Source: Victivallales bacterium
GTDB taxonomy: Bacteria; Verrucomicrobiota; Lentisphaeria; Oligosphaerales; Lenti-02
DNA: 16,836 nucleotides
Direction of reading: 5' to 3'
NCBI GenBank assembly: GCA_003245525.1
Contig: QKCY01000525.1
Coordinates: forward strand, 1 to 16,836
The notes under the pieces are model-generated. The model did not search any database. It worked only from the letters and a program-made list of their open reading frames with translations, and was not told where the DNA came from. Below, piece after piece: positions 3 through 14,321 of this stretch (position 1 is its first letter; every line of letters starts with the position of its first letter). A program made the translations under genes and the position numbers.

Positions 3-500
3 GTGCTCTTCCCCTTCTTCCCCCTACAGCGGAGTTTCCCTTTCTTCAACCACGCCACCTGGGGGATGTACACGACCCACCAGTCGATCTACTGGCGGAT
101 CCTGACCGGTTCCCTGTCCTCGCTGCTGGTCGGGGTCGGCCCCCAGGCGTTGTGCGGCATCTATCCGACGCTGGCGGACCCGGAGCACATCCGGGCCGTG
201 CTGGCCCAGTACGACCAGGCCTATCTGACCGAGAGCTTCTGCACCTACATGGATTCCCACAACGAATACCTGAACACCGGGGTCGCCTTCGGTCTTCCGG
301 CTCTGCTGGCCTGGATCGGCTTCTGGGTGGGACAGGCGGTGGCAGGGTTCCGCCGCCAGCGGGACGAGCTGGTGCTGTTCTTCGTGATTGGCCTGCTGTG
401 TTGCTGCCTGTGGGACGATCTGGCCAGCAAGCGCTGGATCTGGGTGACGGCTGCCCTCCTGGTGGGGAACGCGCGCCGCGAAGCGGAGCCGGTACCATGA
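3..500 (+). CDS. O-antigen ligase/polymerase family (Wzy_C-like) integral membrane protein, C-terminal fragment; the 5' end lies outside the window
   Basis: The frame is open from the window edge to TGA at 498-500. The translation is hydrophobic and multi-TM-like, with the motif HNEYLNTGVAFGLPALLAWIGFW, which resembles the H-[NS]-x-x-L...G-x-x-G signature of the O-antigen ligase/Wzy_C family. Its stop overlaps the next start (ATGA), so it is probably translationally coupled to the glycosyltransferase. Confidence 0.5.
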   Translation: MLFPFFPLQRSFPFFNHATWGMYTTHQSIYWRILTGSLSSLLVGVGPQALCGIYPTLADPEHIRAVLAQYDQAYLTESFCTYMDSHNEYLNTGVAFGLPALLAWIGFWVGQAVAGFRRQRDELVLFFVIGLLCCCLWDDLASKRWIWVTAALLVGNARREAEPVP

Positions 501-1234
501 GCTACGCGGTCATCACCATCTGCCGCAATGCGGCCGCGACCATCGCCCGGTCGATCCGTTCGGTCCAGGCTCAGACCGTGCCGCCCGCGCAATACATCAT
601 TGTGGACGGGGAGTCCACGGACGGGACTTTGGAAGTGGTCGCGGAACTGGCCGAGGGGATGCCCTCCGGCTGTGACTTCCAGGTGGTGCCGCAACCGCCG
701 CCACCGCCCGGCGTGGCCGGTATCCCGAATGCCTGGAATCTCGGGCTCGGACACATCCACGCCAACATAATCTTCCTGCTGAATGCGGATGACTGGCTGG
801 AACCGGACGCCGCCGAGACGGTGCTCGCGGCCTTTGCCGAAGCTCCCGAGGCCGGTCTGCTGACGTCTCCGATCCGGATTGTCGCGGACGACCGCCAATG
901 GCTCCTGCGGCCCCGTCCGCTCTGGCTCTTCCCCTTCCTGATGCCGGTCATGCATCCCGGCTGCTTCGTCCGTCGCTGGGTCTACGACCGGGTGGGCGAT
1001 TTCGACGAGCGCTACCGGATCTCGGCGGACTACGATTTCGCCTACCGCTGCTGCCGGGCCGGGATTCCCTTCCACTCTCTGTCCCGTCCTCTGGTAAACA
1101 TGCAATGGGGCGGGGCTGCCCGCCAGAACCTGCCCACGGCCCGGCGCGAAACGCTGGAGATCGCCCGGCGGCACTGCCGCGTGCCGGGACTCCCGTTCCT
1201 GGCCTACGCCCTGCGCCGGATGCTGGGAAGGTAG
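497..1234 (+). CDS. Family 2 glycosyltransferase (GT-A fold)
   Basis: ATG at 497 overlaps the upstream stop. The N-terminus reads MSYAVITICRNAAATIARSIRSVQAQTVPPAQYIIVDGESTDGT, which is the classic GT2 nucleotide-sugar binding start. A D-x-D-like motif follows (LLNADDWLEPD). The length is 245 aa and the stop is TAG at 1232-1234. Confidence 0.8.
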   Translation: MSYAVITICRNAAATIARSIRSVQAQTVPPAQYIIVDGESTDGTLEVVAELAEGMPSGCDFQVVPQPPPPPGVAGIPNAWNLGLGHIHANIIFLLNADDWLEPDAAETVLAAFAEAPEAGLLTSPIRIVADDRQWLLRPRPLWLFPFLMPVMHPGCFVRRWVYDRVGDFDERYRISADYDFAYRCCRAGIPFHSLSRPLVNMQWGGAARQNLPTARRETLEIARRHCRVPGLPFLAYALRRMLGR

Positions 1235-1240
1235 GGCGGA

Positions 1241-1406
1241 ACGATGGAATACTGGAATGCTGGAATCATGGGAATACGTCTAGCATCCATGTCCAGTATT
1301 CCACCATTCCATCATTCCAGTATTCCACCATTCCATCATTCCAGTATTCCACCATTCCATCATTCCAGTATTCCACCATTCCACCATTCCACCACTCCAT
1401 TCTCCC
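1241..1406. repeat. Low-GC intergenic repeat array. Four 8-bp NNNGGAAT units (1241-1280) are followed after a 12-bp spacer by about 4.5 copies of a 24-bp tandem unit, ccagtattccaccattccatcatt (1293-1388, degenerate to 1406). Each 24-bp unit is made of three NNNATTCC octamers, so the array is an inverted GGAAT/ATTCC architecture.
   Basis: Read directly from the sequence. Units 1293-1316, 1317-1340 and 1341-1364 are identical. Unit 1365-1388 has one substitution (ccaccatt for ccatcatt). The 1389-1406 stretch ccaccactccattctccc is a degenerate tail that runs straight into the asnB ATG at 1407. The upstream gatggaatactgg is the exact reverse complement of ccagtattccatc. This AT-rich segment sits in a genome that is otherwise about 65-70% GC. 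Confidence 0.9.
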
Positions 1407-3299
1407 ATGTGCGGCCTAGCTGGCATTTTTGACCTGCGCGAAGAGCGCACTCCGGACGAAGCCCTGCTCGCCGGGATGGGGCAGCGTTTGTTCCATCGCG
1501 GTCCCGACGAGGGGGGGACGGCGACCGGCCCCGGCTGGGGCCTGGCAAGTCGGCGGCTGGCGATCATCGGTATTTCCGACGGGCACATGCCGATGGCCAA
1601 CGAGGACGGTTCCCTGCGTCTCGTCTTCAACGGCGAGATCTACAATCATCACGCCTTGCGCGAACGGTTGCGCCAGCGGGGCCACGTCTTCCGGACCCAC
1701 GCGGACACCGAGGTGATTCTGCATCTGTACGAGGAACGGGGAGCCGCCGTGGTCGAGGAACTGGAAGGCATGTTCGCTCTTGCCCTCGTGGACGAGCGAC
1801 AGGGAACCGTGTTGCTGGCGCGGGACCGGCTCGGCCAGAAGCCCTTGCACTACGGGTTCACCAGCGATGGATTCCTGGTGTTCGGCAGCGAATTGCAGGC
1901 GCTTCTGACGGTTCCGACACTCCCGCGTGAATTGGAGACGCGGGCGCTGGCGGACTACTTCGGCTTGGGCTACGTGCCTGCGCCGCGTTCCATCTACCGG
2001 GCCGTGCGGCAACTGCCGCCGGGGCATCGGGTGCTGGTCCGGCGTGGTCAGGAAGTCGGTCCGGCGGAACGTTGGTGGTGCCTGGACTACAGCCCCAAGC
2101 TGAACTTGTCCTTCGCCGATGCCGTCGAACGGACGCGCGAATTGGTAGACCAGGCAGTGGCGGCCCGGCTGGAATCGGAAGTGCCCTTGGGTGCGTTCCT
2201 CTCGGGCGGCCTGGATTCCTCGGTGGTGGTGGCCTGTATGCAGCGGCATCTGGCCCAGCCGGTCCGCTCCTTCACCATCGGGTTTGCGGAGGCGCGCTAC
2301 GACGAGCGCGATGCGGCGACGACCGTGGCCCGGCACGTGGGCACCGATCACCACGAGCGGCTGGCCGAACCCGCTGATGCGGCCCTGTTGCGCCAGTTGG
2401 TGCGCCACTATGGCGAGCCCTACAGCGATTCCTCCCTGCTGCCCACGGCCCTGCTGTCCCGGTTCACCCGCGAACAGGTGACCGTGGCCCTGAGTGGCGA
2501 CGGTGGCGACGAGCTGTTCGGCGGGTACCGGCGCTACCAGTTCATGGCTTTGCACCGCTATCTGCGGTTGGTTCCCGGCCCGTTGCGTCGCGGATTGGCT
2601 CGCCTGCTCCTGGCAGCGCTGCCTGCGGAACGGGCAGGGCGGACCAAGCGGGGCGAACTGCGCCGGTCCCTGGCCGCCTTTGCCCAGGAGCCCTTGGCCT
2701 GTTTTGCCGGTTTCCAGGAGATCCTGAACCGGGATGTGACCAGCCGCCTGCTCGCGCCGGTCGCGGGTTCATGGACCGGACATTATCTGGAGGATTGGGA
2801 GCGCTTCCTGGCTGCTGGCACAGCCAGCGATCCGGTGGAGCGGTTCCTCGAACTGGATACGGCCTGCTATCTGCCCGACGATCTGCACCGCAAGGTGGAC
2901 ATCGCCTCCATGGCCTTCAGCATCGAGGTCCGGGCTCCGTTCATGGACCGGGCGCTCCAGGAGTTCGTGGCCACCTTGCCGCGCGAGTACAAGTGCGGCG
3001 TCCGCTACCGCAAACGGCTCCTGCAAGCGATCGGGCAACCCCTGTTGCCGGAAAGCATCTGTCAGCGGTCCAAACGGGGGTTTGGCGTGCCCGTGGCCGA
3101 GTGGTTGCGCGGTGGCCTGCGGGACGAGACCCGGGCCTTGGCGGGCGACCTTCGTTCCTGGGATCGGCGGGGCCTGCTCGACCCCGCGACGGTACAGACT
3201 CTGGTGGACGATCATCTGGCAGAACGGCAGAACCATGCCTTCGTGCTCTGGGCCTTGTTCTGTCTGAGGCTATGGTACGAGGAAGTCGATACGTTGTAG
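1407..3299 (+). CDS. asnB: Asparagine synthetase (glutamine-hydrolysing) family amidotransferase, AsnB/WbpS-like
   Basis: The protein is 630 aa and starts MCGLAGIF, with the catalytic Cys directly after Met as expected for a class II Ntn glutamine amidotransferase. The synthetase domain carries the PP-loop SGGLDSS. Family features recognised include VFNGEIYNH, the LEGMFA region and the C-terminal FxxPxxxW region. The gene lies in a glycan-biosynthesis context. Confidence 0.9.
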   Translation: MCGLAGIFDLREERTPDEALLAGMGQRLFHRGPDEGGTATGPGWGLASRRLAIIGISDGHMPMANEDGSLRLVFNGEIYNHHALRERLRQRGHVFRTHADTEVILHLYEERGAAVVEELEGMFALALVDERQGTVLLARDRLGQKPLHYGFTSDGFLVFGSELQALLTVPTLPRELETRALADYFGLGYVPAPRSIYRAVRQLPPGHRVLVRRGQEVGPAERWWCLDYSPKLNLSFADAVERTRELVDQAVAARLESEVPLGAFLSGGLDSSVVVACMQRHLAQPVRSFTIGFAEARYDERDAATTVARHVGTDHHERLAEPADAALLRQLVRHYGEPYSDSSLLPTALLSRFTREQVTVALSGDGGDELFGGYRRYQFMALHRYLRLVPGPLRRGLARLLLAALPAERAGRTKRGELRRSLAAFAQEPLACFAGFQEILNRDVTSRLLAPVAGSWTGHYLEDWERFLAAGTASDPVERFLELDTACYLPDDLHRKVDIASMAFSIEVRAPFMDRALQEFVATLPREYKCGVRYRKRLLQAIGQPLLPESICQRSKRGFGVPVAEWLRGGLRDETRALAGDLRSWDRRGLLDPATVQTLVDDHLAERQNHAFVLWALFCLRLWYEEVDTL

Positions 3300-5965: not shown

Positions 5966-8900
5966 CTACTTGCCCGTGAGGTGCTGGCGGAGGTCGGCGA
6001 GGAGCTGACCCTGTTCGCGCATGGCTTCCATGATCGGCAGCAGGCTTTCGAGGATGAGCACCTGGCGGGACCAGGCGCGGCCGTACTCCGCCGGGAACGT
6101 GGTCTGCACTTCGAGCGCCCCGGTCGGCTGGCTGCTTTCCGGGGGACGGAGCGCCTGGAGGGCGGTCACGAGCGGAGCGAGGTCCAGGGGCTTGCCGAGT
6201 CGGTCGCGGACTTCGCCGAGGGCGGCGGCCAGGGGGTGAAGATCGACGCTGGCGCTCTGCTTTTCGGCCAGGGCGGAGAGCGCCGCCACCACGGGGGCGA
6301 AATCCGTGGCGGGAGGACGGTTCTCGCGGGCCGATTCGATGAGGGCGGCACCGAGCCGTTTCAGCCCCGTATCGAAGCCCTGTTCCAGGGAGTTGTGGAC
6401 GTGCCCCAGATTGGCGTTGAAGGCGGAGAGCTGGGCGAGGATCTTGCCCATGTCGTCGCTGTCGTCCACGCCGGAAAGGGCCTGGCGGCGGTTGAACTCG
6501 GTCTTGATCTCCTGCCAGCGGGTGCGCTCGTCGTCCGACTGCATCCCCATCATCTCCTTGAACTTGAGGATGTTGGCCTCGGCTCCGGTGGTCAGGGTCT
6601 GGGCCTCGTTGTAGTAGTGGTCGACCACGAGCTGGGTCACCTCGGCGTCGGTCATGACCGGGAAGACCTTCTCGGCCATGCGGCACATGTTGCGGTAGGA
6701 GCCCTGGAGCTTGAAGGGCGGTTCGGTACGGTATTCGTCCTGCTGGGCGGCGGACCGGATGTACTGCTGGTTGACCCGCAATACGACCTGCTGGATGCGG
6801 CGCAGCTTGCGCAGGACGTTCTGGATGTCGTCCGCCTCCGAGACGGACCAGGAGTAGGCGAAGTCGATGCCCTCGGTGGAGCCCGCCTCCACGGCCTGGA
6901 CGAAGCGATAGAGGTCCTCGTGGCTGTGGCTGGCGATCTCCGAGAGGGTCGCGTTCGAGGTCATGGCGTTCTCGATGAAGGAGAGGGCGAAGGCGCTGGC
7001 CGCCGTCTCCGAGATGTCGCCGAGGTTGTAGGTGTCGGCGCGGTTGGCGAGCATGTCGGGAATGCGGAACTTGGCACCGGACTCGGTGTAGGGGTTGCCC
7101 GCCATGACCACGGCGACCTTCTTGCCGCGCAGGTCGTAGGTGCGGGTGACGCCCCGGTACACGCCCTCGATCTTGCGCTGGGCGTCGCACAGGCTGATGA
7201 ACTTCTGGAGGAACTCCGGGTTGCAGTGTTGGATGTCGTCCAGGTAGACCATCACGTTGTTGGCCATTTCCAGGGCGAGATTGAGCTTGTGCAACTCCTC
7301 ACGGGCGGTGGCATTGGGTGCTTCGGCCGGGTCCAGGCTGGTGACGCCGTGGCCGATGGCGGGGCCGTTGATCTTCATGAAGGCCAGCCCGAGCCGGTTG
7401 GCGATGTACTCCATGAGCGTGGTCTTGCCGTAGCCGGGCGGCGAGATGAGGAGGAGCATGCCCATCAGGTCGGTGCGCTTGCTCTCGCCCGCCACGCCCA
7501 TCTGCTTGGCGAAGTTGGCCCCCACCAGGTTCAGATAGACGTCGTTGATGAGCTTGTTGCGCACGAAGGAGCCCATGACGCGGCTCTGGAACTCGCCCAG
7601 GCGCATCTCCCCGCGGCGCTGCTCGACGACATCGGCCCGCCGCCGGGCGTAGCGCCGGAAGCGCGGCACGCGGATTTGGGCGAAGTGGCTGAGCCGGGCC
7701 AGAAAGAGATCCAGGTGCAGGCTCAGCACCCGATTCTGAATCCGGGGATGCTGGCCCAGCAGGCCCTCGATGGTGGCCAGAGTGCTGACCCGCGAGGCGT
7801 CGCGGCTGATGATGTTCCCCGCCGCGACCAGAGCCACCACCTCCCAGACCAGATGGCCGGAGTCGGCGGGTTCCCGCACCTCGACGAAAGCGCCGACCCA
7901 GTCATGGATCAGGGCGATCCGGGCGGGCACGTCGGCAACGGTGGCAATCGCCTCGGCGAACCGCTTCTCCCGGCGGGCGTCGCGCAGGGCGGTGAGGAAG
8001 CGCTGGTGCAGCTCGATGGCCAGGGCGTTGACCGTGAACTCCAGGTTCTCCTCGTCCTGCAGCTCGTGGTAGAGGTACTCGGCGGCCTGGCCCAGCATGA
8101 CCGGACTGAGGTCCAACCCCATGTGCTCGTAGAAGTGCTCGACCAGAGTGCGGATCTCGGCGACGTACTCCTGGCGCACGGGCAATTCGCCGAACAGCCG
8201 GGGCAGTTGGCCGAAGGACTGCAGCCGCGTGCGCAGTTCGGCCTTGCGGGTGGCGTCGGGGTAGAAGCACCAGAAGATGATGGCGTAGGCCCGGCACTCG
8301 GAGTCGTAGCGCAGCAGCTTGCACTCCCCGTAGAGCCGGACAAGGTGGGGCAGGATCGTGCCTGCATCGGCGTCGTGGACGCCCTTCTCGTAGCCTTCGG
8401 TGTAGAGCCCGGCGGCGAACCGGCGGACTTCGGCCAACAGGGCCGCCCCATCCTCGACCAGTTCCGTCAGACGGGTCAGGGAGAGCTCGTTCCTGCCGAG
8501 GATAGCGGCCTGGAGCATCTGGTAGGCCAGGTACTCCGACCGGTAGACCTCGGGGGTCTCGCTCACCAGTTCCTGTTCCCACAGGTCGCGGCATTCCAGC
8601 AACTCGGGATCGTCCACCCGTTCCAGGAAATCGGTGCCGGTGAGGTGGAAGAACAGGTCGCCATCGCGATAGACCGTGGTCAGTTCCAGCGGCTGGGTGT
8701 TCACCGTGAAGTGGTAGTCGCCGAAGGAGATGACATTGTCGCCGCCCTTGAAGAGGTCGAGTTTGTCGCGCAGGCGGCGGATGATCTCGTCGCGGGCGCT
8801 CTTCAGGCGTCCGGTAAGGTCGTCGGCCTTCACCGACTCGCCCATGTCGTGGAGCTTGGCGATGTTCTCGCGCAGCTTGGCCACCATCATGTCCGAGGCG

Positions 8901-11302
8901 AAGTAGGCGTTGACCTCGTCGATGCCCTTGAAGCTCTCGGCCCGGTTGATGGCCCCCTTCAGAACCCGCTCCGCGCTGGCGACCATGGTGCCGACGCGGC
9001 GCTGACGCTGCTCGTCGAGCACCTGCTTGCGGGCGGAGAAGGCGCTGTAGGCCTCCTCGCGCTTCTCGGTGAGCTGGGCGACGTATTCGTCGTAGTCGGC
9101 GAATTTCCCTTCCAGCTCCTCGATGGTGACCATGACCTTGGTGAGGAACTCGTCGCAGCGGGCGACGGAGTCGCACATGCCGATGTAGTTGGTGATGGCC
9201 TGGCTGACCAGTTTGAACTGGGCGGCGAACTCGGCGGCGGCCTCCTCCTTACCCAGGTCCCGGCGCTGGTTGCGCAGGGCGGCACGGGTGCGGTTCACCC
9301 CGGCGTAGACCTCGGTGATGGCATCGACGATCTGGGTGGTCTGGGTGGCGTCCTCGATCTCCAGGTTGTTGACCACGTCGGTCAGCAGGTCGAGGCGGGT
9401 GGCCAGTTCCTCCAGTTTGGCGGCGGTGGCATCGAGATCGACCAGTTTGGCGATGCCGGGCAGGGAATCGGCGATCTGCTGGTTTTCCTGGCGGTAGGGA
9501 TCGAGGGCGTCGGGGCGGAGCAGGAACTTGGCGCAGGCGAGAGCGAGGACTTCGGCGGCTTCGCCCAGCTTCCGGTCCAGTTCGGCGATCCGGTTCCCGT
9601 CCGCGTAGCGCAGCTCGCGCAGGCTGATGACCTGGCCCCGGCGGGTGCGCAGTTCGCCCAGGCCCTCCACGAAATCGTCGATGTTGCCCATGCGGTCGGG
9701 CACGGCATCGAGCAGGCACTCGCGGACGGCGGCTTCGCTGGCGCTGATCTGCTTCTCCGTGGCGTTCCGGAGGTTGACCACCTTCTCGAACTCGCCGACC
9801 GCCGCCACGGCGGCGGCCTTCACCTGCTGGACGGTGTCCGCGACGTTCTCCGCCTCCTCCCGGCCCAGCCAGTAGTGGCCGTCGAGCATGTTGGTGGTGG
9901 CACGGATAAGGTCGTGGTAGGTGTAGAGCGTGACCGGTTCGGCCAGGGCGAGGCGGCTGACGGCATAGCCTTCGGAGACGGCGCGGACCAGATCGCGGTT
10001 GCCGATCTTGGCCAGGAAGGGATCGCCCTTGGCCTCGGGCTGGAAATCGTCGCTACAGAAAGGCGTCTGCCAGATCTGCATCGGGTGGATGCGCTTGGGC
10101 TCGTCGTCCGGGGCGCTGAACAGCACCATGCGCCCGTCGTCGTAGAGCGAATAGCCATGGCAGAAGATCGGGTTCGCCAACTGCTTGGTAATGAGGTTGT
10201 ACTGGAACAGCAGGTGGCGCCCTTGCTCGACATGGTAGAAGATGTAGAGGAAGTCCTCGCCGTTCGGGGAGGCGATGCTCTCCAGGAAGACCATCCCCGC
10301 CACATCCTCGTCGAAGAGCCGTTCGCCGCCATCCTGGAGGTAGTAGCCCTTGGGGAAGATGATGCCGTGGCTCTCGGGCAACTCCACGCAGGCCTGGGCG
10401 ATGGCGTCCACGCGCAGGGCGGTCTGCCGCTTCTCGTTGAAGATGAAGTGCCGCCAGACCTCCTCGCGGTAGGGGCGGATCCGCAATAGGATGAGTTCGC
10501 CCACGGTGGCGTAGTGGATCGCGGCGTCGTCCAGGGTCTGGTCGGGATTGTCGACCGGCTCGGAGTAGATGCCCTCGCCGGACTCCGTGTTGTCCTCGAT
10601 CTTGATGGTCAGATCGCCCTCGATGCATTCCACGAACACCCGGTCGAGGATGTTGATGTGGGGGTGCATGCCCTGCACCTGGTCGTCGCGGGTGGTGGGA
10701 TGCCATTCGAACTGCTGCTGGGGGGGCAGTTTGTACTCGGTCTCGCCCCGGTCGTCCACATAGGTCAGCGTGTTGTCGCGGGTAATGGAGAAACGGAAGA
10801 CGCGGATCTCGTTGGCGGTGTTGCCAACCTGGAAGATCAGCAGCAGTTGTCCCGTCTTCTTGATGAACTGGAGGAAGCGGGCGTTCTTGTAGTACTTGTA
10901 GAGTTCCCCGAAGTCCTTGCGGAAGCCGCCCTGGTCCAGCAGGTCCAGCCCCGCGTTGCGGAAGCCGTTGCCGTCGAACTCATGGACGCTGAACACGTCT
11001 TCGAGCTTGGTTTCGCTCTTCAGGCCGAGGTAGACGTTGTAGCCGAAGACCAGGGAACGTCCCACCCCCGTGATGTCGCGGGGCACGCAGTTGTTCTCGG
11101 TCGGGATGCGGTCGTTGCCGGCGATCTGGCTTTCCTGGCTGCCGAAGGTGCCCTTGCGCCGGGAATTGAGCGCTTCCAGACGGCGGATCAGCTCGCCGTT
11201 GAGCCCCAGCAGTCGTTTGTGCAGGACATCGTAGGCACCGCCGCCCAGTTCGGCCGACTGCTCGTCGGGGGGGGCAGGTTGGGTTGGTTCTTGCTCGGCC
11301 AT
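5966..11302 (-). CDS. Giant (about 1,778 aa) uncharacterised protein with one dynein/MoxR-type AAA+ (AAA_5-like) ATPase module near the C-terminus, a long N-terminal region and central coiled coils
   Basis: A continuous ORF on the minus strand with normal amino-acid composition. Walker A is LLLISPPGYGKTTL (nt about 7424-7444). Walker B plus the post-Walker-B loop reads VMVYLDDIQHCNPEFLQKFISLCD (nt about 7225-7260), which matches the AAA_5 pattern hhhhDEINRAxPEVLNALLSLLDE. Sensor-1 is VAVVMAGNP and an Arg-containing element is RIPDMLANRAD. The ATG at 11300-11302 is preceded by GGAG with a 7-nt spacer. An in-frame GTG at 11314 is an alternative start. The opposite-strand ORF 5945..10489 is a G/L/V/D/A-rich antisense artefact. 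Confidence 0.8.
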   Translation of the reverse strand: MAEQEPTQPAPPDEQSAELGGGAYDVLHKRLLGLNGELIRRLEALNSRRKGTFGSQESQIAGNDRIPTENNCVPRDITGVGRSLVFGYNVYLGLKSETKLEDVFSVHEFDGNGFRNAGLDLLDQGGFRKDFGELYKYYKNARFLQFIKKTGQLLLIFQVGNTANEIRVFRFSITRDNTLTYVDDRGETEYKLPPQQQFEWHPTTRDDQVQGMHPHINILDRVFVECIEGDLTIKIEDNTESGEGIYSEPVDNPDQTLDDAAIHYATVGELILLRIRPYREEVWRHFIFNEKRQTALRVDAIAQACVELPESHGIIFPKGYYLQDGGERLFDEDVAGMVFLESIASPNGEDFLYIFYHVEQGRHLLFQYNLITKQLANPIFCHGYSLYDDGRMVLFSAPDDEPKRIHPMQIWQTPFCSDDFQPEAKGDPFLAKIGNRDLVRAVSEGYAVSRLALAEPVTLYTYHDLIRATTNMLDGHYWLGREEAENVADTVQQVKAAAVAAVGEFEKVVNLRNATEKQISASEAAVRECLLDAVPDRMGNIDDFVEGLGELRTRRGQVISLRELRYADGNRIAELDRKLGEAAEVLALACAKFLLRPDALDPYRQENQQIADSLPGIAKLVDLDATAAKLEELATRLDLLTDVVNNLEIEDATQTTQIVDAITEVYAGVNRTRAALRNQRRDLGKEEAAAEFAAQFKLVSQAITNYIGMCDSVARCDEFLTKVMVTIEELEGKFADYDEYVAQLTEKREEAYSAFSARKQVLDEQRQRRVGTMVASAERVLKGAINRAESFKGIDEVNAYFASDMMVAKLRENIAKLHDMGESVKADDLTGRLKSARDEIIRRLRDKLDLFKGGDNVISFGDYHFTVNTQPLELTTVYRDGDLFFHLTGTDFLERVDDPELLECRDLWEQELVSETPEVYRSEYLAYQMLQAAILGRNELSLTRLTELVEDGAALLAEVRRFAAGLYTEGYEKGVHDADAGTILPHLVRLYGECKLLRYDSECRAYAIIFWCFYPDATRKAELRTRLQSFGQLPRLFGELPVRQEYVAEIRTLVEHFYEHMGLDLSPVMLGQAAEYLYHELQDEENLEFTVNALAIELHQRFLTALRDARREKRFAEAIATVADVPARIALIHDWVGAFVEVREPADSGHLVWEVVALVAAGNIISRDASRVSTLATIEGLLGQHPRIQNRVLSLHLDLFLARLSHFAQIRVPRFRRYARRRADVVEQRRGEMRLGEFQSRVMGSFVRNKLINDVYLNLVGANFAKQMGVAGESKRTDLMGMLLLISPPGYGKTTLMEYIANRLGLAFMKINGPAIGHGVTSLDPAEAPNATAREELHKLNLALEMANNVMVYLDDIQHCNPEFLQKFISLCDAQRKIEGVYRGVTRTYDLRGKKVAVVMAGNPYTESGAKFRIPDMLANRADTYNLGDISETAASAFALSFIENAMTSNATLSEIASHSHEDLYRFVQAVEAGSTEGIDFAYSWSVSEADDIQNVLRKLRRIQQVVLRVNQQYIRSAAQQDEYRTEPPFKLQGSYRNMCRMAEKVFPVMTDAEVTQLVVDHYYNEAQTLTTGAEANILKFKEMMGMQSDDERTRWQEIKTEFNRRQALSGVDDSDDMGKILAQLSAFNANLGHVHNSLEQGFDTGLKRLGAALIESARENRPPATDFAPVVAALSALAEKQSASVDLHPLAAALGEVRDRLGKPLDLAPLVTALQALRPPESSQPTGALEVQTTFPAEYGRAWSRQVLILESLLPIMEAMREQGQLLADLRQHLTGK

Positions 11303-11329
11303 GAACAGCTCCACGTGGCACGGAAAGGC

Positions 11330-11369: not shown

Positions 11370-13451
11370 CTACTTCTTGGTCACTTGCGCGAGCAGGTCC
11401 TTGAGCTGCCCCATCACGCCTTCGCCGCCCTTGCTGGCAATCTTGGCGAGCAGGTTGGCCACGGTCAGGTTCTTCACGTCCTCGCTGCTGACGCCGGAGG
11501 TGGCGATCAGCTCGGCAAGCTGGGTGGCGATGTTGGCGCTGTCGCCCGCCACCAGCTTCTTGGCCTGGTCGCTCTTCTCCACGAAGCCGTCCACCGACTT
11601 GGCGAGACTGATGGACCGGAAGAAGTTCTCCAGGAAGGTGCCGTCGCCGCCCACGATGTCGATGTTCGCCTGGCGGACCGCTTCGCCCAGCACGCGGGCC
11701 TGGGCTTCGGCGATCTGGCGCTGGACGTCGATGCCGGCCAGTTCCACCCGCTCCTGCTTGGCCAACTGGAGCTTGAACTCCTCGTGTTCGCGGCCCACGC
11801 CGTCGAACTTCTTCATGGCGTCGGCCTTGAGGTCGATGGCCTTGGCCTCGGCTTCGCCGCTCTGCTCGATACCGAAGGCTTCCGCCTTGTGCTTCTCGAT
11901 CCCGGCATCGGCTTCGGCCTTGCCGCGCAGCACGATGGCGTTGGCCTCGGCTTCCTGCACCTTGACGTTGGCCAAACCAAGGGCGGATTCCTCGGCGATG
12001 ACGCCTTCGGCCAGCAGCTTCTTGGCCTGGGCTTCCTTCTCGGACTTGGCGAGGACGGCCGCGCCCTGCTTCTCGGCGAGCACCAGTTCGGCTTCGCCCT
12101 GCTGCTCGGCCTTGATGCGGATCGCCTCGGCCTGCCGCTGGATCTGCTCCTTCTCGGCGTCGGCCATGGTGATCTTCTCTTCGTACAGGCTCTTGGCGGC
12201 GCGCTCCTTGGACTCGGCCGCCTTGACCTCCTTGACCAGGAGCTGTTCGGCCTCGCGCTCGGCCTCGATGATCTGCGCCTTGCGCTCGCGCTCGGCCTCC
12301 ATGATACGCCGGGTGTCCTTGATGCGCTCCTCCTCCTCGGCCACGGTCTTCTCGACCATGACGCGCTCGCGGATCACGTCCTGGATGTTCTTCTTCTCGA
12401 CCTCGACCGCCTTCTCCTTCTCGATGGTCTTCAAGGTCACCAACCGCTCGCGCTCGACCACTTCGAGCTGGCGGTCGCGCTGGACGCGTTCCTCCTCGAT
12501 GGCGATGGCGCGCTGCTTGGCCTTCTCGGCGACGGCGATCTGGCGGTCCTTGTTCTCGACCGCGACCGCGACCTCCTCGTCGGTGGCCAGGGCGGCCTTC
12601 TCGGACTTCAGGCGTTCCTCTGCCTCGACCACGCGGGCGGAAGCGTTCTCGCGGGCCTGGATCTCGGCGATTTCGCGCTTCTTGCGCTCCTGGGCCTCGG
12701 CCCGCTGGCGCTCGAGCTCGGCGATGGTGGCGTCGGCCTCCACGTTCTGCTTGGTGATGACCTTGCGCTCGTTCTGCTTGGCCTCGTTGGTGGCCATGTG
12801 CTCCACGGCGGTGAGCTGGGTGATCTTGCGGATGCCCTGGCTGTCCAGGATATTCTGGTCGTCAAGGGAGGCGAGGGGGGTCTGCTCCAGGTAGTCGATG
12901 GCCACGTCTTCCAGGCGGTAGCCGTTGAGGTCCTCGCCGATCACCGTGATGATCTGCTCCTTGAAGCGCTCGCGCTCGGTGAACAGGGTAGTGAACTCCA
13001 TCTGCTTGCCGACCGTCTTCAAGGCCTCGGAGAACTTGGCCTGGAACAGCTCTTCCAGGGTGGCCTGAATCGAGGCGCGCTGGCAACCCACCGACTGGGC
13101 GACCTTGAGCACGTCCTCCTGGGTCTTGTTGACCCGGACGTAGAAGGTGACGCGGATGTCGGCGCGGATGTTGTCCTCGCAGATCAGGCCGTTGCGGCCC
13201 GACCGCTCGATCTCCATCCCCTTCACCGAGATATCCATGTACTCGGCCTTGTTGAAGATAGGAATCACCACGCCGCCAGTGAAGGTGACGGTATTGCCGC
13301 GGAAGCCGTTGATGATCAGGGCTTGTCCCTGGGCCACCTTGCGGTACATCTTCGCCACGAAGTAGATCACCGCGAAGAAGACGAAGCAGACGGCGGCGGC
13401 CCAGAGCAGGACGACTTGGTAGTAGAGGAGGGCGGGGGTGGGCAGTGGCAT
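11370..13451 (-). CDS. yqiK: Flotillin-family SPFH/band-7 protein, YqiK-like (N-terminal TM anchor, SPFH domain, long E/A-rich coiled coil)
   Basis: The N-terminus has a hydrophobic anchor LLYYQVVLLWAAAVCFVFFAVIYFV followed by AKMYRKVAQGQALIINGFRGNTVTFTGGVVIPIFNKAEY. This parallels E. coli YqiK ...ARLYRRASAEQAFVRTGLGGQKVVMSGGAIVMPIFHEI.... It is followed by about 330 aa of E/A/K/R-rich heptad-like coiled coil typical of bacterial flotillins. An AAGGAA RBS precedes the ATG at 13449-13451, and the stop is TAG at 11370-11372. Confidence 0.85.
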   Translation of the reverse strand: MPLPTPALLYYQVVLLWAAAVCFVFFAVIYFVAKMYRKVAQGQALIINGFRGNTVTFTGGVVIPIFNKAEYMDISVKGMEIERSGRNGLICEDNIRADIRVTFYVRVNKTQEDVLKVAQSVGCQRASIQATLEELFQAKFSEALKTVGKQMEFTTLFTERERFKEQIITVIGEDLNGYRLEDVAIDYLEQTPLASLDDQNILDSQGIRKITQLTAVEHMATNEAKQNERKVITKQNVEADATIAELERQRAEAQERKKREIAEIQARENASARVVEAEERLKSEKAALATDEEVAVAVENKDRQIAVAEKAKQRAIAIEEERVQRDRQLEVVERERLVTLKTIEKEKAVEVEKKNIQDVIRERVMVEKTVAEEEERIKDTRRIMEAERERKAQIIEAEREAEQLLVKEVKAAESKERAAKSLYEEKITMADAEKEQIQRQAEAIRIKAEQQGEAELVLAEKQGAAVLAKSEKEAQAKKLLAEGVIAEESALGLANVKVQEAEANAIVLRGKAEADAGIEKHKAEAFGIEQSGEAEAKAIDLKADAMKKFDGVGREHEEFKLQLAKQERVELAGIDVQRQIAEAQARVLGEAVRQANIDIVGGDGTFLENFFRSISLAKSVDGFVEKSDQAKKLVAGDSANIATQLAELIATSGVSSEDVKNLTVANLLAKIASKGGEGVMGQLKDLLAQVTKK

Positions 13452-13501
13452 GGAGAGTTCCTTTCTTCTCGGTCAACTGGGCTTGGATGAAACGCGTTGC
13501 G

Positions 13502-14281
13502 TCAGAGTTTGCGGACTTCGTAGGAGTCGGACTCGGCATGGTATTCCACAACCACCGCCTCGTCCCGCTTGCCGAGCTTCTCCTCTTCGGGAGCCCGGAC
13601 ATCGATGGTCAGGAACGACTCGCCCACGACCATTTCGGCCTGGCCGAAGGAGGGGGTGACCCGTCCGCTGCGGATACGGCAGATCTTGCCCACCAGATGC
13701 TCGTGGCCCCGCTGGGTGTGGCGCCGGAAGAAGCGGCGCAGGGGGCGGGTGCTGATGCCGGTGAGAACGAAGGCGACGACAAAGCAGACCGCCAGCACCG
13801 CCAGGAAGAACACGATGGGCGGCAGCCAATCCCGCAGCCACGCCGGGGCGTAGCAGGTGATGGTGTAGGCCTCGATCCACATGAAGGAGATCAGCAGGCT
13901 GAAAATCAGCGTGGCAGGCACCTCGCCGAGGTTGATGAAGCCCAGCACCGCGCGCAAGGCACTGCCAGCCCCCTCGGCAGCCCCTTCCGCCGCGCCTTCG
14001 GCAGCCCCTTCTGCTGCCGCCTCTGCGGCCCCTTCCGCGACTCCCTCGGCGACTCCCTCGGCCACCCCTTCCGCAAGACCTTCGGCCAAGCCTTCGGCGG
14101 CCCCCTCCGCCACGCCTTCGGCAGCACCATCCGCCGCGCCGAAGATGCCGTCCAGGAAGTCGAGGTCCAAGGCACCAATCAGGACGACCACCCAGTAGAG
14201 CAGCATGAGCAGCATCAACAGGGTGTAGAGCAACATGGACGGACCGAAGACGAGTTGCACGAACTCTCGGATGTTGTCCAT
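13502..14281 (-). CDS. yqiJ: YqiJ/NfeD-like inner-membrane protein (flotillin partner) with an inserted AEGxA pentapeptide-repeat linker and a C-terminal OB-fold-like domain
   Basis: The N-terminal TM helix ends in LIGALDLDFLD, compared with E. coli YqiJ ...GHMLSGALDAHLDH. There are two further TM segments. The C-terminus HLVGKICRIRSGRVTPSFGQAEMVVGESFLTIDVRAPEE parallels YqiJ [39 protein letters not shown]. It sits immediately upstream of the flotillin gene with a 50-bp spacer, which is the canonical NfeD-flotillin pairing. The RBS AGGAGC lies before the ATG at 14279-14281. Confidence 0.65.
   Translation of the reverse strand: MDNIREFVQLVFGPSMLLYTLLMLLMLLYWVVVLIGALDLDFLDGIFGAADGAAEGVAEGAAEGLAEGLAEGVAEGVAEGVAEGAAEAAAEGAAEGAAEGAAEGAGSALRAVLGFINLGEVPATLIFSLLISFMWIEAYTITCYAPAWLRDWLPPIVFFLAVLAVCFVVAFVLTGISTRPLRRFFRRHTQRGHEHLVGKICRIRSGRVTPSFGQAEMVVGESFLTIDVRAPEEEKLGKRDEAVVVEYHAESDSYEVRKL
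13962..14141. repeat. In-frame 15-nt tandem repeat, about 12 units, encoding (A-E-G-x-A)n within the yqiJ-like gene
   Basis: The + strand reads ccttcggcagcccct / tccgccgcgcct / tcggcagcccct ... with 15-nt periodicity. Its minus-strand translation is GAADGAAEGVAEGAAEGLAEGLAEGVAEGVAEGVAEGAAEAAAEGAAEGAAEGAAEGAG. The antisense + ORF 13881..14198 (APSAAPSA...) is the mirror artefact of this repeat. Confidence 0.8.
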
Positions 14282-14321
14282 TTCTCGCTCCTGGGGTTAC
14301 GGGGGGTCTTCAACCGTTAAC

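Follow-up and report, generated by a model that had tools for sequence, protein, structure and literature searches.

An octamer array between a glycosyltransferase gene and asnB in a Victivallales bacterium, probably a dispersed palindromic element in gene-less form

The object of this study is a short gap between two genes of a Victivallales bacterium (assembly GCA_003245525.1, contig QKCY01000525.1). The stretch of DNA we analyzed, which we call the window, is 16,836 nucleotides long. Within it, 172 nt separate the TAG stop codon (1232–1234) of a family-2 glycosyltransferase (GT2) gene from the ATG (1407) of asnB, and the gap is filled from 1235 to 1406 by an array of 8-nt units, in which a run built on GGAAT faces a longer run built on ATTCC. 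The original prediction, made from the sequence by eye, had seen in this array a possible device for controlling asnB. We have come to a different reading: the array is probably a gene-less miniature of a dispersed palindromic element, the full-length relatives of which carry a gene for a four-helix-bundle protein, and it was inserted between genes of an operon. The features of the locus are as follows.

497–1234, plus strand: family-2 glycosyltransferase (Pfam Glycos_transf_2), 245 aa from the ATG at 497; length and start match the orthologues in L120–L125.
1235–1275, no strand: left arm, with GGAAC at 1238–1242 and GGAAT at 1246, 1254 and 1262 in an 8-nt register; spacers gat/act/gct/cat.
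1276–1292, no strand: loop or junction between the arms, 17 nt, acgtctagcatccatgt, without an open reading frame (ORF).
1293–1337, no strand: proximal right arm, whose ATTCC units are the partners of the left arm in the minimum-energy fold.
1292–1391, no strand: 24-bp higher-order repeat TCCAGTATTCCACCATTCCATCAT, 4.2 copies, 98% match (Tandem Repeats Finder).
1338–1406, plus strand: surplus ATTCC/ACTCC units, which on the mRNA form a C-rich, G-poor leader up to the asnB ATG, without a Shine–Dalgarno (SD) sequence.
1244–1432, plus strand: 62-aa ORF, (SIPPFHHS)n, an open frame through the repeats, judged spurious.
1407–3299, plus strand: AsnB-family glutamine-hydrolysing asparagine synthase (Pfam Asn_synthase and GATase_7), starting Met-Cys.

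The inverted array is where it had been described and is, as had been said, poor in G+C (0.44–0.45, against 0.66 over the whole window), with four or five GGAAT facing 12 exact ATTCC and one or two degenerate ones. The left arm begins immediately 3′ of the GT2 stop codon, and its fifth GGAAT, at 1271–1275, is off register by one base. The 12 exact ATTCC of the right arm run in 8-nt steps from 1298 to 1390 and are followed by ACTCC at 1394–1398 and a degenerate tail to 1406; Tandem Repeats Finder reports a period of 8 and 12.8 copies for 1298–1399. The composition of this arm (1293–1406) is 42% C and 3.5% G. With up to one mismatch allowed, ATTCCNNNATTCC is found at 16 places in the window, and the array holds 15 of these; the number expected from shuffles is 0.57 (a 28-fold excess). 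The two arms of the inverted repeat are 34–45 nt long and 73–85% complementary. A 13-mer that had been taken to pair exactly between them is complementary at 12 of its 13 positions, the right arm reading CCAGTATTCCACC, with one A–C mismatch. There is one copy of the element in the whole window. The repeat units have no stop codon in any frame, as inspection of the sequence confirms, and the peptide of the 62-aa ORF is not conserved in the related locus L120 (in an alignment read by eye), which bears out the suspicion that this frame is spurious. The covariance models of Rfam 15, run on the window at E values up to 1, returned sub-threshold miRNA-hairpin noise and no rRNA match, and a scan of 900–1800 found 0 promoter-like and 0 terminator-like sites. 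An intrinsic terminator was considered and rejected, as no T-run lies behind the arm.

ATG 1407 is the true start of asnB because the product begins Met-Cys. In class II glutamine amidotransferases, the N-terminal Cys is well established. Orthologues of AsnB, 75 to 88% identical, are found in Lentisphaerota (Victivallales/Lentisphaeria), and the gene order Wzy-like, GT2, AsnB, MutS2 is kept in six related contigs. These relatives make the insertion visible. In L121–L125, where AsnB is 75–78% identical, the site is empty: the GT2 stop (TAG or TAA) is followed by 16–18 nt and the ATG of asnB, as in TAG aaggaacccttgccgaca ATG. We count the element as absent from this junction in four relatives at that level of identity. 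A closer relative, L120 (AsnB 88% identical), has a 155-nt GT2–asnB spacer in which a 50-nt loop separates about seven GGAAT-like units from about four to six that are ATTCC-like. Since the element is present in the window and in L120 and absent from the more distant relatives, it arrived in the common ancestor of the two, and its unit numbers have changed since then; the suggestion that repeat number varies between relatives was right. That two independent assemblies carry the element at this junction argues against an assembly artefact.

The element is also found far from asnB. When 185,579 species genomes were searched for four ATTCC spaced 8 nt apart, at least 119 loci matched; metagenomes searched for CCACCATTCCACCAYTCC gave at least 120. 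Many of these loci are built like the window's array: three or four units of GGAAT-R-N-T, a loop, and three or four units of A-N-Y-ATTCC. With a tolerant detector, GGAAT…ATTCC pairs number 56 in 53 unrelated loci against 1 pair in the opposite order, and the modal arm has 4 units. The logo of the unit, over 338 units, reads G G A A T R N T, with six of the eight positions nearly invariant. Hosts include Desulfobacterota (Desulfobacterales), Bacteroidota (Bacteroidales, Saprospiraceae), Planctomycetota and Verrucomicrobiota, along with Lentisphaerota (Lentisphaeraceae), Kiritimatiellia, Pontiellaceae, Calditrichia, Gemmatimonadota and others. In many copies aatt stands outside the arms and ggg/ccc just inside them, features common to several phyla. 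Single metagenome-assembled genomes hold several copies with near-identical interiors and different flanks (L020 and L038, L056 and L111, and five loci of DAOVOU01), and many of the copies stand at the end of a contig. The elements lie in intergenic DNA: the genes on either side run in the same direction in 22 cases, converge in 6 and diverge in 0, and the median distance is 42 nt to the preceding stop codon and 127 nt to the next start. Had the array been a control device specific to asnB, it should not have been scattered in this way. The original prediction itself had named occurrence at many unrelated loci as the mark of a generic dispersed repeat, and that is what we found, in many phyla, together with the four relatives in which the GT2–asnB junction does without it.

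Against this general picture, the window's copy is a length outlier: its right arm has 13 units, the typical arm 3–4. The copies of the 24-bp block within it are 100/100/98% identical to one another, and we therefore regard it as the product of a recent local expansion. A close parallel to its left arm is in L159, a Kiritimatiellia contig, where a copy lies 22 nt past the pdxB stop and has a left arm, GGAATgatGGAATaccGGAATgctGGAATcatgg, identical to the window's at 32 of 34 positions. Its spacers, gat / ac(c/t) / gct / cat, are the window's rare spacer series, and we count these unusual spacers as support for common descent of the two arms. The pdxB–rluD junction provides a second empty site, in L569/L570, where stop and start codons overlap. 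Like that of L159, other copies from high-G+C members of the Planctomycetes–Verrucomicrobia–Chlamydiae (PVC) group closely resemble the window's: L152 starts 3 nt past a stop and has a C-rich tail (the last ATTCC plus 16 nt) that ends at the next ATG, and the element of L182 starts 4 nt past a stop. At about 2590–2660 of L182, the ATTCC arm continues into a coding sequence for a prepilin-type N terminus (..RGFTLVEILVV..), with no canonical in-frame start visible after the array.

Several further repeats were noticed along the way. The pdxB–rluD spacers of two other Kiritimatiellia loci, L567 (4165–4714) and L568 (4162–4489), have no GGAAT arms; they hold octamers of the TTCAGAGT type, TTCACGG heptamers and, three times, the palindromic unit ccgtccgcaggcttgccacgccatgggcgtggacgtgg. 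The intergenic gaps of these genomes gather several kinds of repeat. A sister unit, GGAGT/ACTCC, replaces or mixes with GGAAT/ATTCC in L048 (3376–3760, GGAGTACT arrays), L026 (3000–3130 and 3490–3570) and L587 (1–55 and 487–540), and the window's own ACTCC (1394–1398) is of this type. Among Desulfobacterota, a subfamily has one extra module, AATTnAACGTCTCGGAATTTCTACAACnnATTGAAAT, about 45 nt before the left arm and a second, ATTCCAATTGTGAGCGAAGCGAACTAAGTTC, past the right arm, the latter containing a GCGAAGC mini-hairpin motif. Members with both modules are L004, L014, L036, L040, L047, L052, L055, L056 (e.g. 815–1055), L058, L061, L079, L109, L145, L155, L168 and L184, and the modules are in mixed orientation relative to neighboring genes. 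These modules (AACGTCTCGGAATTTCTACAAC..., ...GTGAGCGAAGCGAACTAAGTTC) are absent from the window. A sigma-54-like reading of the left module (TGGC...TTGC) failed on inspection. On the minus strand of L056, at 680–759 and about 60 nt from a copy of the element, there is a c-di-GMP-I-GGC riboswitch that scores 64.8 bits, above the gathering score. Rfam, run on 20 related loci, gave no match at the elements, and BLAST of a full element against 72,556 plasmids gave none either. Literature searches by sequence strings and by topic, like Rfam, gave no description of the family.

How far can such a pattern be trusted, given that simple repeats abound? As controls, we took three pentamers of ATTCC composition in viral contigs, which are a different collection from the genome loci and make the comparison indicative only. 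(ATTCCNNN)4 is not enriched there (69 loci, against 98, at least 120 and 37 for the controls), so the argument rests on architecture and not on counts. The architecture does differ. Among the genome ATTCC matches listed, 30 of 119 have a facing arm in the fixed order and 0 in the reverse order (an exact-match count), against 1 of 98, 4 of 117 and 0 of 37 for the control pentamers; variable spacers occur in 76% of ATTCC arrays and in 23–35% of the controls. The asymmetry in arm order is internal to the data set and robust. Octamer tandem arrays seem to be common in viral contigs too: four TCACT spaced 8 nt apart matched at least 120 loci of IMG/VR (viral contigs L413–L529), and at four of these an inverted array faces the first. 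Because arbitrary octamer arrays are common, some single-arm ATTCC matches will be unrelated repeats, and those of the kind ATTCCcct, GGAATgga, GGAATcag and similar clearly are.

The loops are what gave the family an identity. That of L170 contains a 136-aa ORF for a TIGR02436 four-helix-bundle protein (Pfam 23S_rRNA_IVP, PF05635). Its relatives include the pentameric XCC0516 of Xanthomonas (2GSC) and 2RLD, with five chains per entry. The PF05635/TIGR02436 family was first found inside the intervening sequences (IVS) of 23S rRNA, as S23p. When hmmsearch was run on all six-frame ORFs of about 570 loci, it found 4 four-helix-bundle genes, all 4 with a left arm of GGAAT/GGAGT on one side and a right arm of ATTCC/ACTCC on the other. 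We also came at the question from the protein side. A profile search gave 6,920 four-helix-bundle proteins at E values up to 1e-10, many on contigs shorter than 2 kb, and the contigs of four of them, picked blind to the DNA pattern, turned out to be three new distinct loci and the L170 locus. Arms were present in all, and at one of the loci they abut the start and stop codons of the gene. In total, 7 of 7 distinct loci examined, all of one subfamily of the protein, have the four-helix-bundle gene in the loop between the arms. Loop lengths are bimodal, 13–235 nt without the ORF and 441–545 nt with it. Remnants of the ORF were found in none of the short loops, and relatives of the protein in no viral contig. 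Genes of PF05635 are also known from scattered places within cas loci (PMC3936711).

The course of events that we propose is as follows. A copy would have entered the 16–18-nt GT2–asnB gap before the window organism and L120 diverged, and slippage or unequal exchange of the three-unit, 24-bp block would have lengthened its right arm from about 4 units to about 13. Co-transcribed with the operon, the element would form an imperfect hairpin of about 130 nt (1230–1350) directly after the GT2 stop. RNase III may cut this stem, by analogy with the stems of IVS, splitting the GT2 message from the asnB–mutS2 message, and cleavage of that kind would make the insert tolerable. asnB would then be translated from a C-rich, SD-less leader whose last 30 nt or so are predicted to be unpaired. 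At the least, the insert would have abolished the tight 16–18-nt coupling seen in the relatives. What the data establish is the structure of the array, its presence in some relatives and absence from others, its scatter over genomes and the tie to the four-helix-bundle gene; the mode of mobility, transcription through the element, cleavage by RNase III and any effect on asnB are what we infer here. On this reading, the array is a passenger in the GT2–asnB–mutS2 operon, not a purpose-built switch.

A number of observations weigh against the insertion of a miniature element, and they are best told together. Clear target-site duplications were not found: the flanks are AATT- or TAA-like, and those of the window are too diverged from the empty sites. 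In the longer Desulfobacterota form, both target-site duplications and terminal inverted repeats are unconvincing, and no terminal cleavage site was identified. Neither a transposase nor any other protein recurs beside the elements, where the neighbor clusters are generic (ABC-ATPase-like and two-component-like, as named by size and ubiquity), and the four-helix-bundle protein is not known as an enzyme of mobility. The gene for it was seen in none of the PVC loci searched, so that a full-length partner in this lineage would be hypothetical. All the four-helix-bundle loci tested come from a single subfamily, with at least 50% identity to the seeds (at least 53% for most), and 4 of the 7 came from loci selected by pattern. 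Plain octamer arrays of arbitrary pentamers are common in the viral contigs, at 37 to at least 120 loci. At the empty GT2–asnB junctions of L121 (5982–6000), L124 (5306–5322) and L125 (5982–6000), AGGAAC or GGAATCC stands directly 3′ of the stop; being half-unit-like, it could reflect a target preference or be a local seed. Two further results give no positive sign that RNA pairing is under selection and argue against any simple selection for it: sense and antisense strands of the family's elements fold equally well (11 vs 11), and the spacers do not covary between arms (0.488 within elements vs 0.529 for shuffled partners, z = -1.4).

The hairpin itself is predicted to be stable. The RNA of 1225–1440 folds at -64.1 kcal/mol (z = -4.1), a stability that 0 of 200 shuffles reached, and the element of L120 folds with z = -4.6. 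The prediction recruits just the first five or so ATTCC units of the right arm. Mean predicted probabilities of being unpaired are 0.17 for the left arm, 0.28 for 1298–1337, 0.46 for 1338–1377 and 0.82 for 1378–1406. Thus, the last 30 nt or so before the asnB ATG (1378–1406) are predicted to be mostly unpaired, and the initiation region lies outside the predicted stem. The long imperfect hairpin that had been foreseen therefore survives, with its inverted arms; the enclosure of the start codon does not. The ATG does lack an SD sequence, as had been said, and so do about half of the genes in the relatives, including mutS2 in every one of them. A missing SD is not unusual for this lineage.

The main rival takes the octamers to be recognition sites on DNA or single strands, with the pentameric four-helix-bundle protein as candidate binder; the inverted arrays would then be binding platforms and not an RNA stem. 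Without arm covariation and without a strand bias in folding, the conserved unit may indeed be a protein recognition site. In keeping with this, six of eight unit positions are near-invariant while the variable positions of the arms do not covary, neither strand is favored in folding, the modal arm has four units and the encoded protein family forms pentamers (2GSC, 2RLD). A tandem spacing of 8 bp is known for the sites of ribbon-helix-helix repressors such as MetJ. Binding here is a candidate property, though; a stem forms regardless, as six to seven positions in each octamer pair anyway; and gene-less copies sit in genomes in which no four-helix-bundle gene was seen, within limited sampling. 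On balance, we consider this reading unlikely, though the protein-binding array of 8-bp periodicity that had been suggested at the outset keeps a modest probability.

An origin in place is harder still to sustain. It would have the native AGGAAC spacer seed 8-bp slippage and a fold-back make the opposite arm, with the likeness to elements elsewhere a matter of convergence. AGGAAC/GGAATCC does stand directly behind the stop at the empty sites, octamer arrays of many kinds are frequent and the right arm is clearly expanding locally. Convergence would, however, also have to deliver the 56:1 arm order, the aatt outside and ggg/ccc inside in several phyla, an arm in L159 that is 32/34 identical down to its rare spacers, single genomes with multiple copies of an identical interior and the same kind of arms around a conserved gene. 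We regard all this as improbable. It is very improbable that the array is a contingency locus, in which unit number switches or tunes asnB–mutS2 (phase variation), possibly with the C-rich, unpaired tail as a loading site for Rho. The near-identity of the 24-bp blocks (98–100%) does imply recent change, unit numbers differ between window and L120 (that is, between species), and the tail is 42% C and 3.5% G, with its last 30 nt or so predicted unpaired. The units are, however, outside the coding frame and any recognized promoter, and most family members have just 3–4 of them.

We give almost no credence to a translational riboregulator specific to asnB, with a hairpin that occludes the initiation region or GGA sites that titrate or bind CsrA/RsmA: a stable predicted hairpin, the lack of an SD before the ATG and four or five GGA-containing units speak for it, but the element turns up at unrelated loci by the dozen and is missing between GT2 and asnB in four relatives, the prediction leaves the start region unpaired, the GGA triplets of the left arm sit in the predicted stem (P(unpaired) 0.17) and not in loops, the unit is T-GGAAT-R-N and not A(N)GGA, with an A two bases before GGA in just 40% or so of units, and the element is common in Bacteroidota, from which, to our knowledge, CsrA is generally absent.

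The rest of the window holds a few features of its own. The real gene at 5966–11314 is on the minus strand; its product of 1782 aa has the domains DUF3686 (‘ATPase involved in DNA repair’), DUF7902 and AAA, and no Pfam match was found for the 1514-aa ORF that covers this region on the plus strand. The next minus-strand ORF, 11370–13451, has no Pfam match either and looks partly flotillin/SPFH-like, by eye alone. At 13966–14140 lies a degenerate 12/24/36-bp tandem repeat, CAGCCCCCTCGG-like with a 70–77% match, within the overlapping ORFs 13445–14320 (plus strand) and 13502–14281 (minus strand), neither with a Pfam match.

For the window, then, the outcome is that a tempting regulatory story has been removed. 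The broader interest lies in the family. In bacterial genomes, the genes annotated as ‘four helix bundle protein’ run into the thousands and have no known role, and the origin and movement of 23S rRNA intervening sequences have been an open question since the 1990s. Searchable arms that bracket four-helix-bundle genes, along with gene-less miniatures that have empty sites, provide a handle on both. The arms allow the ends of elements to be defined, copies to be counted, insertion sites to be compared and the protein to be tested against a specific 8-nt motif. There is a practical side as well: the arrays break short-read assemblies, as the many copies at contig ends show, and software that searches for repeats could take them for regulatory or CRISPR-like ones.

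How does the element compare with known systems? Repetitive extragenic palindromic (REP) sequences, with the bacterial interspersed mosaic elements (BIMEs) and REPINs built from them, are likewise extragenic palindromes found mainly after the 3′ ends of genes and inside operons, with hypothesized roles in mRNA stability and termination; unlike the octamer elements, REPs are 20–40 bp long, have a GTAG or CGTC tag and are tied to RAYT transposases, and neither survey mentions the octamer family (PMC3733652, PMC3116915). The window copy has no GTAG or CGTC tag on inspection, and no RAYT-like neighbor cluster was found. Among tandem repeats, cyanobacteria have comparable intergenic heptamer repeats, the STRR sequences. 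The TAACTGA heptamer arrays of Beggiatoaceae, Cyanobacteria and Bacteroidetes are short intergenic tandem units too, often just upstream of SD-less starts, patchy over distant phyla, expanding to tens of copies and of unknown function; they differ in being mostly direct, without a facing inverted arm or an enclosed gene, and in having a unit of 7 nt, not 8 (PMC4679880).

Miniature inverted-repeat transposable elements (MITEs) offer a further comparison. The window copy has their terminal inverted repeats, small size and lack of coding capacity, and presence or absence at orthologous sites is seen at both the GT2–asnB and the pdxB–rluD junctions. The MITE-like palindromic repeats Correia/NEMIS, ERIC and RUP are likewise 100–300 bp, intergenic, multi-copy and hairpin-forming through inverted ends; they are co-transcribed with neighboring genes, come and go between relatives and have longer, gene-carrying kin. 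The differences are that we found no transposase partner, the longer form encoding a four-helix-bundle protein alone, and no target-site duplication, and that the ends are arrays of 8-nt units and not a unique terminal inverted repeat.

It is the S23p intervening sequences of Coxiella burnetii and Leptospira that come closest. There are differences here too: the window copy lies between the protein-coding genes GT2 and asnB, not in helix 25 or 45 of a 23S rRNA gene, it has no ORF, its arms consist of octamers repeated in tandem that share a conserved GGAAT core, the octamer family has a high copy number in several phyla, and excision by RNase III is here an analogy drawn from the predicted stem. 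The Coxiella IVS is a selfish insert with an S23p ORF in its loop, a 28-bp terminal stem that is cut by RNase III and heptamers in a number that varies between strains (PMC4990558). The likenesses to the octamer elements are several: inverted repeats with a stem of about 30 bp (34–45 nt in the arms of the window), a PF05635/TIGR02436 ORF in the loop of the full-length copies (7 related loci), short tandem repeats of variable number inside the element and, as we propose, toleration in a transcribed but dispensable position. One may go further, tentatively and with more doubt than conviction, and suppose that octamer-armed hairpins and the S23p/Avd-like four-helix-bundle genes they enclose are one previously unrecognized class of selfish element, spread across the Fibrobacteres–Chlorobi–Bacteroidetes (FCB) and PVC groups and Desulfobacterota. 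The 23S rRNA IVS, which are rare, would then be just the best-known landing site, and T-GGAAT-R-N the recognition site of a pentameric protein that maintains or mobilizes full-length and miniature copies alike.

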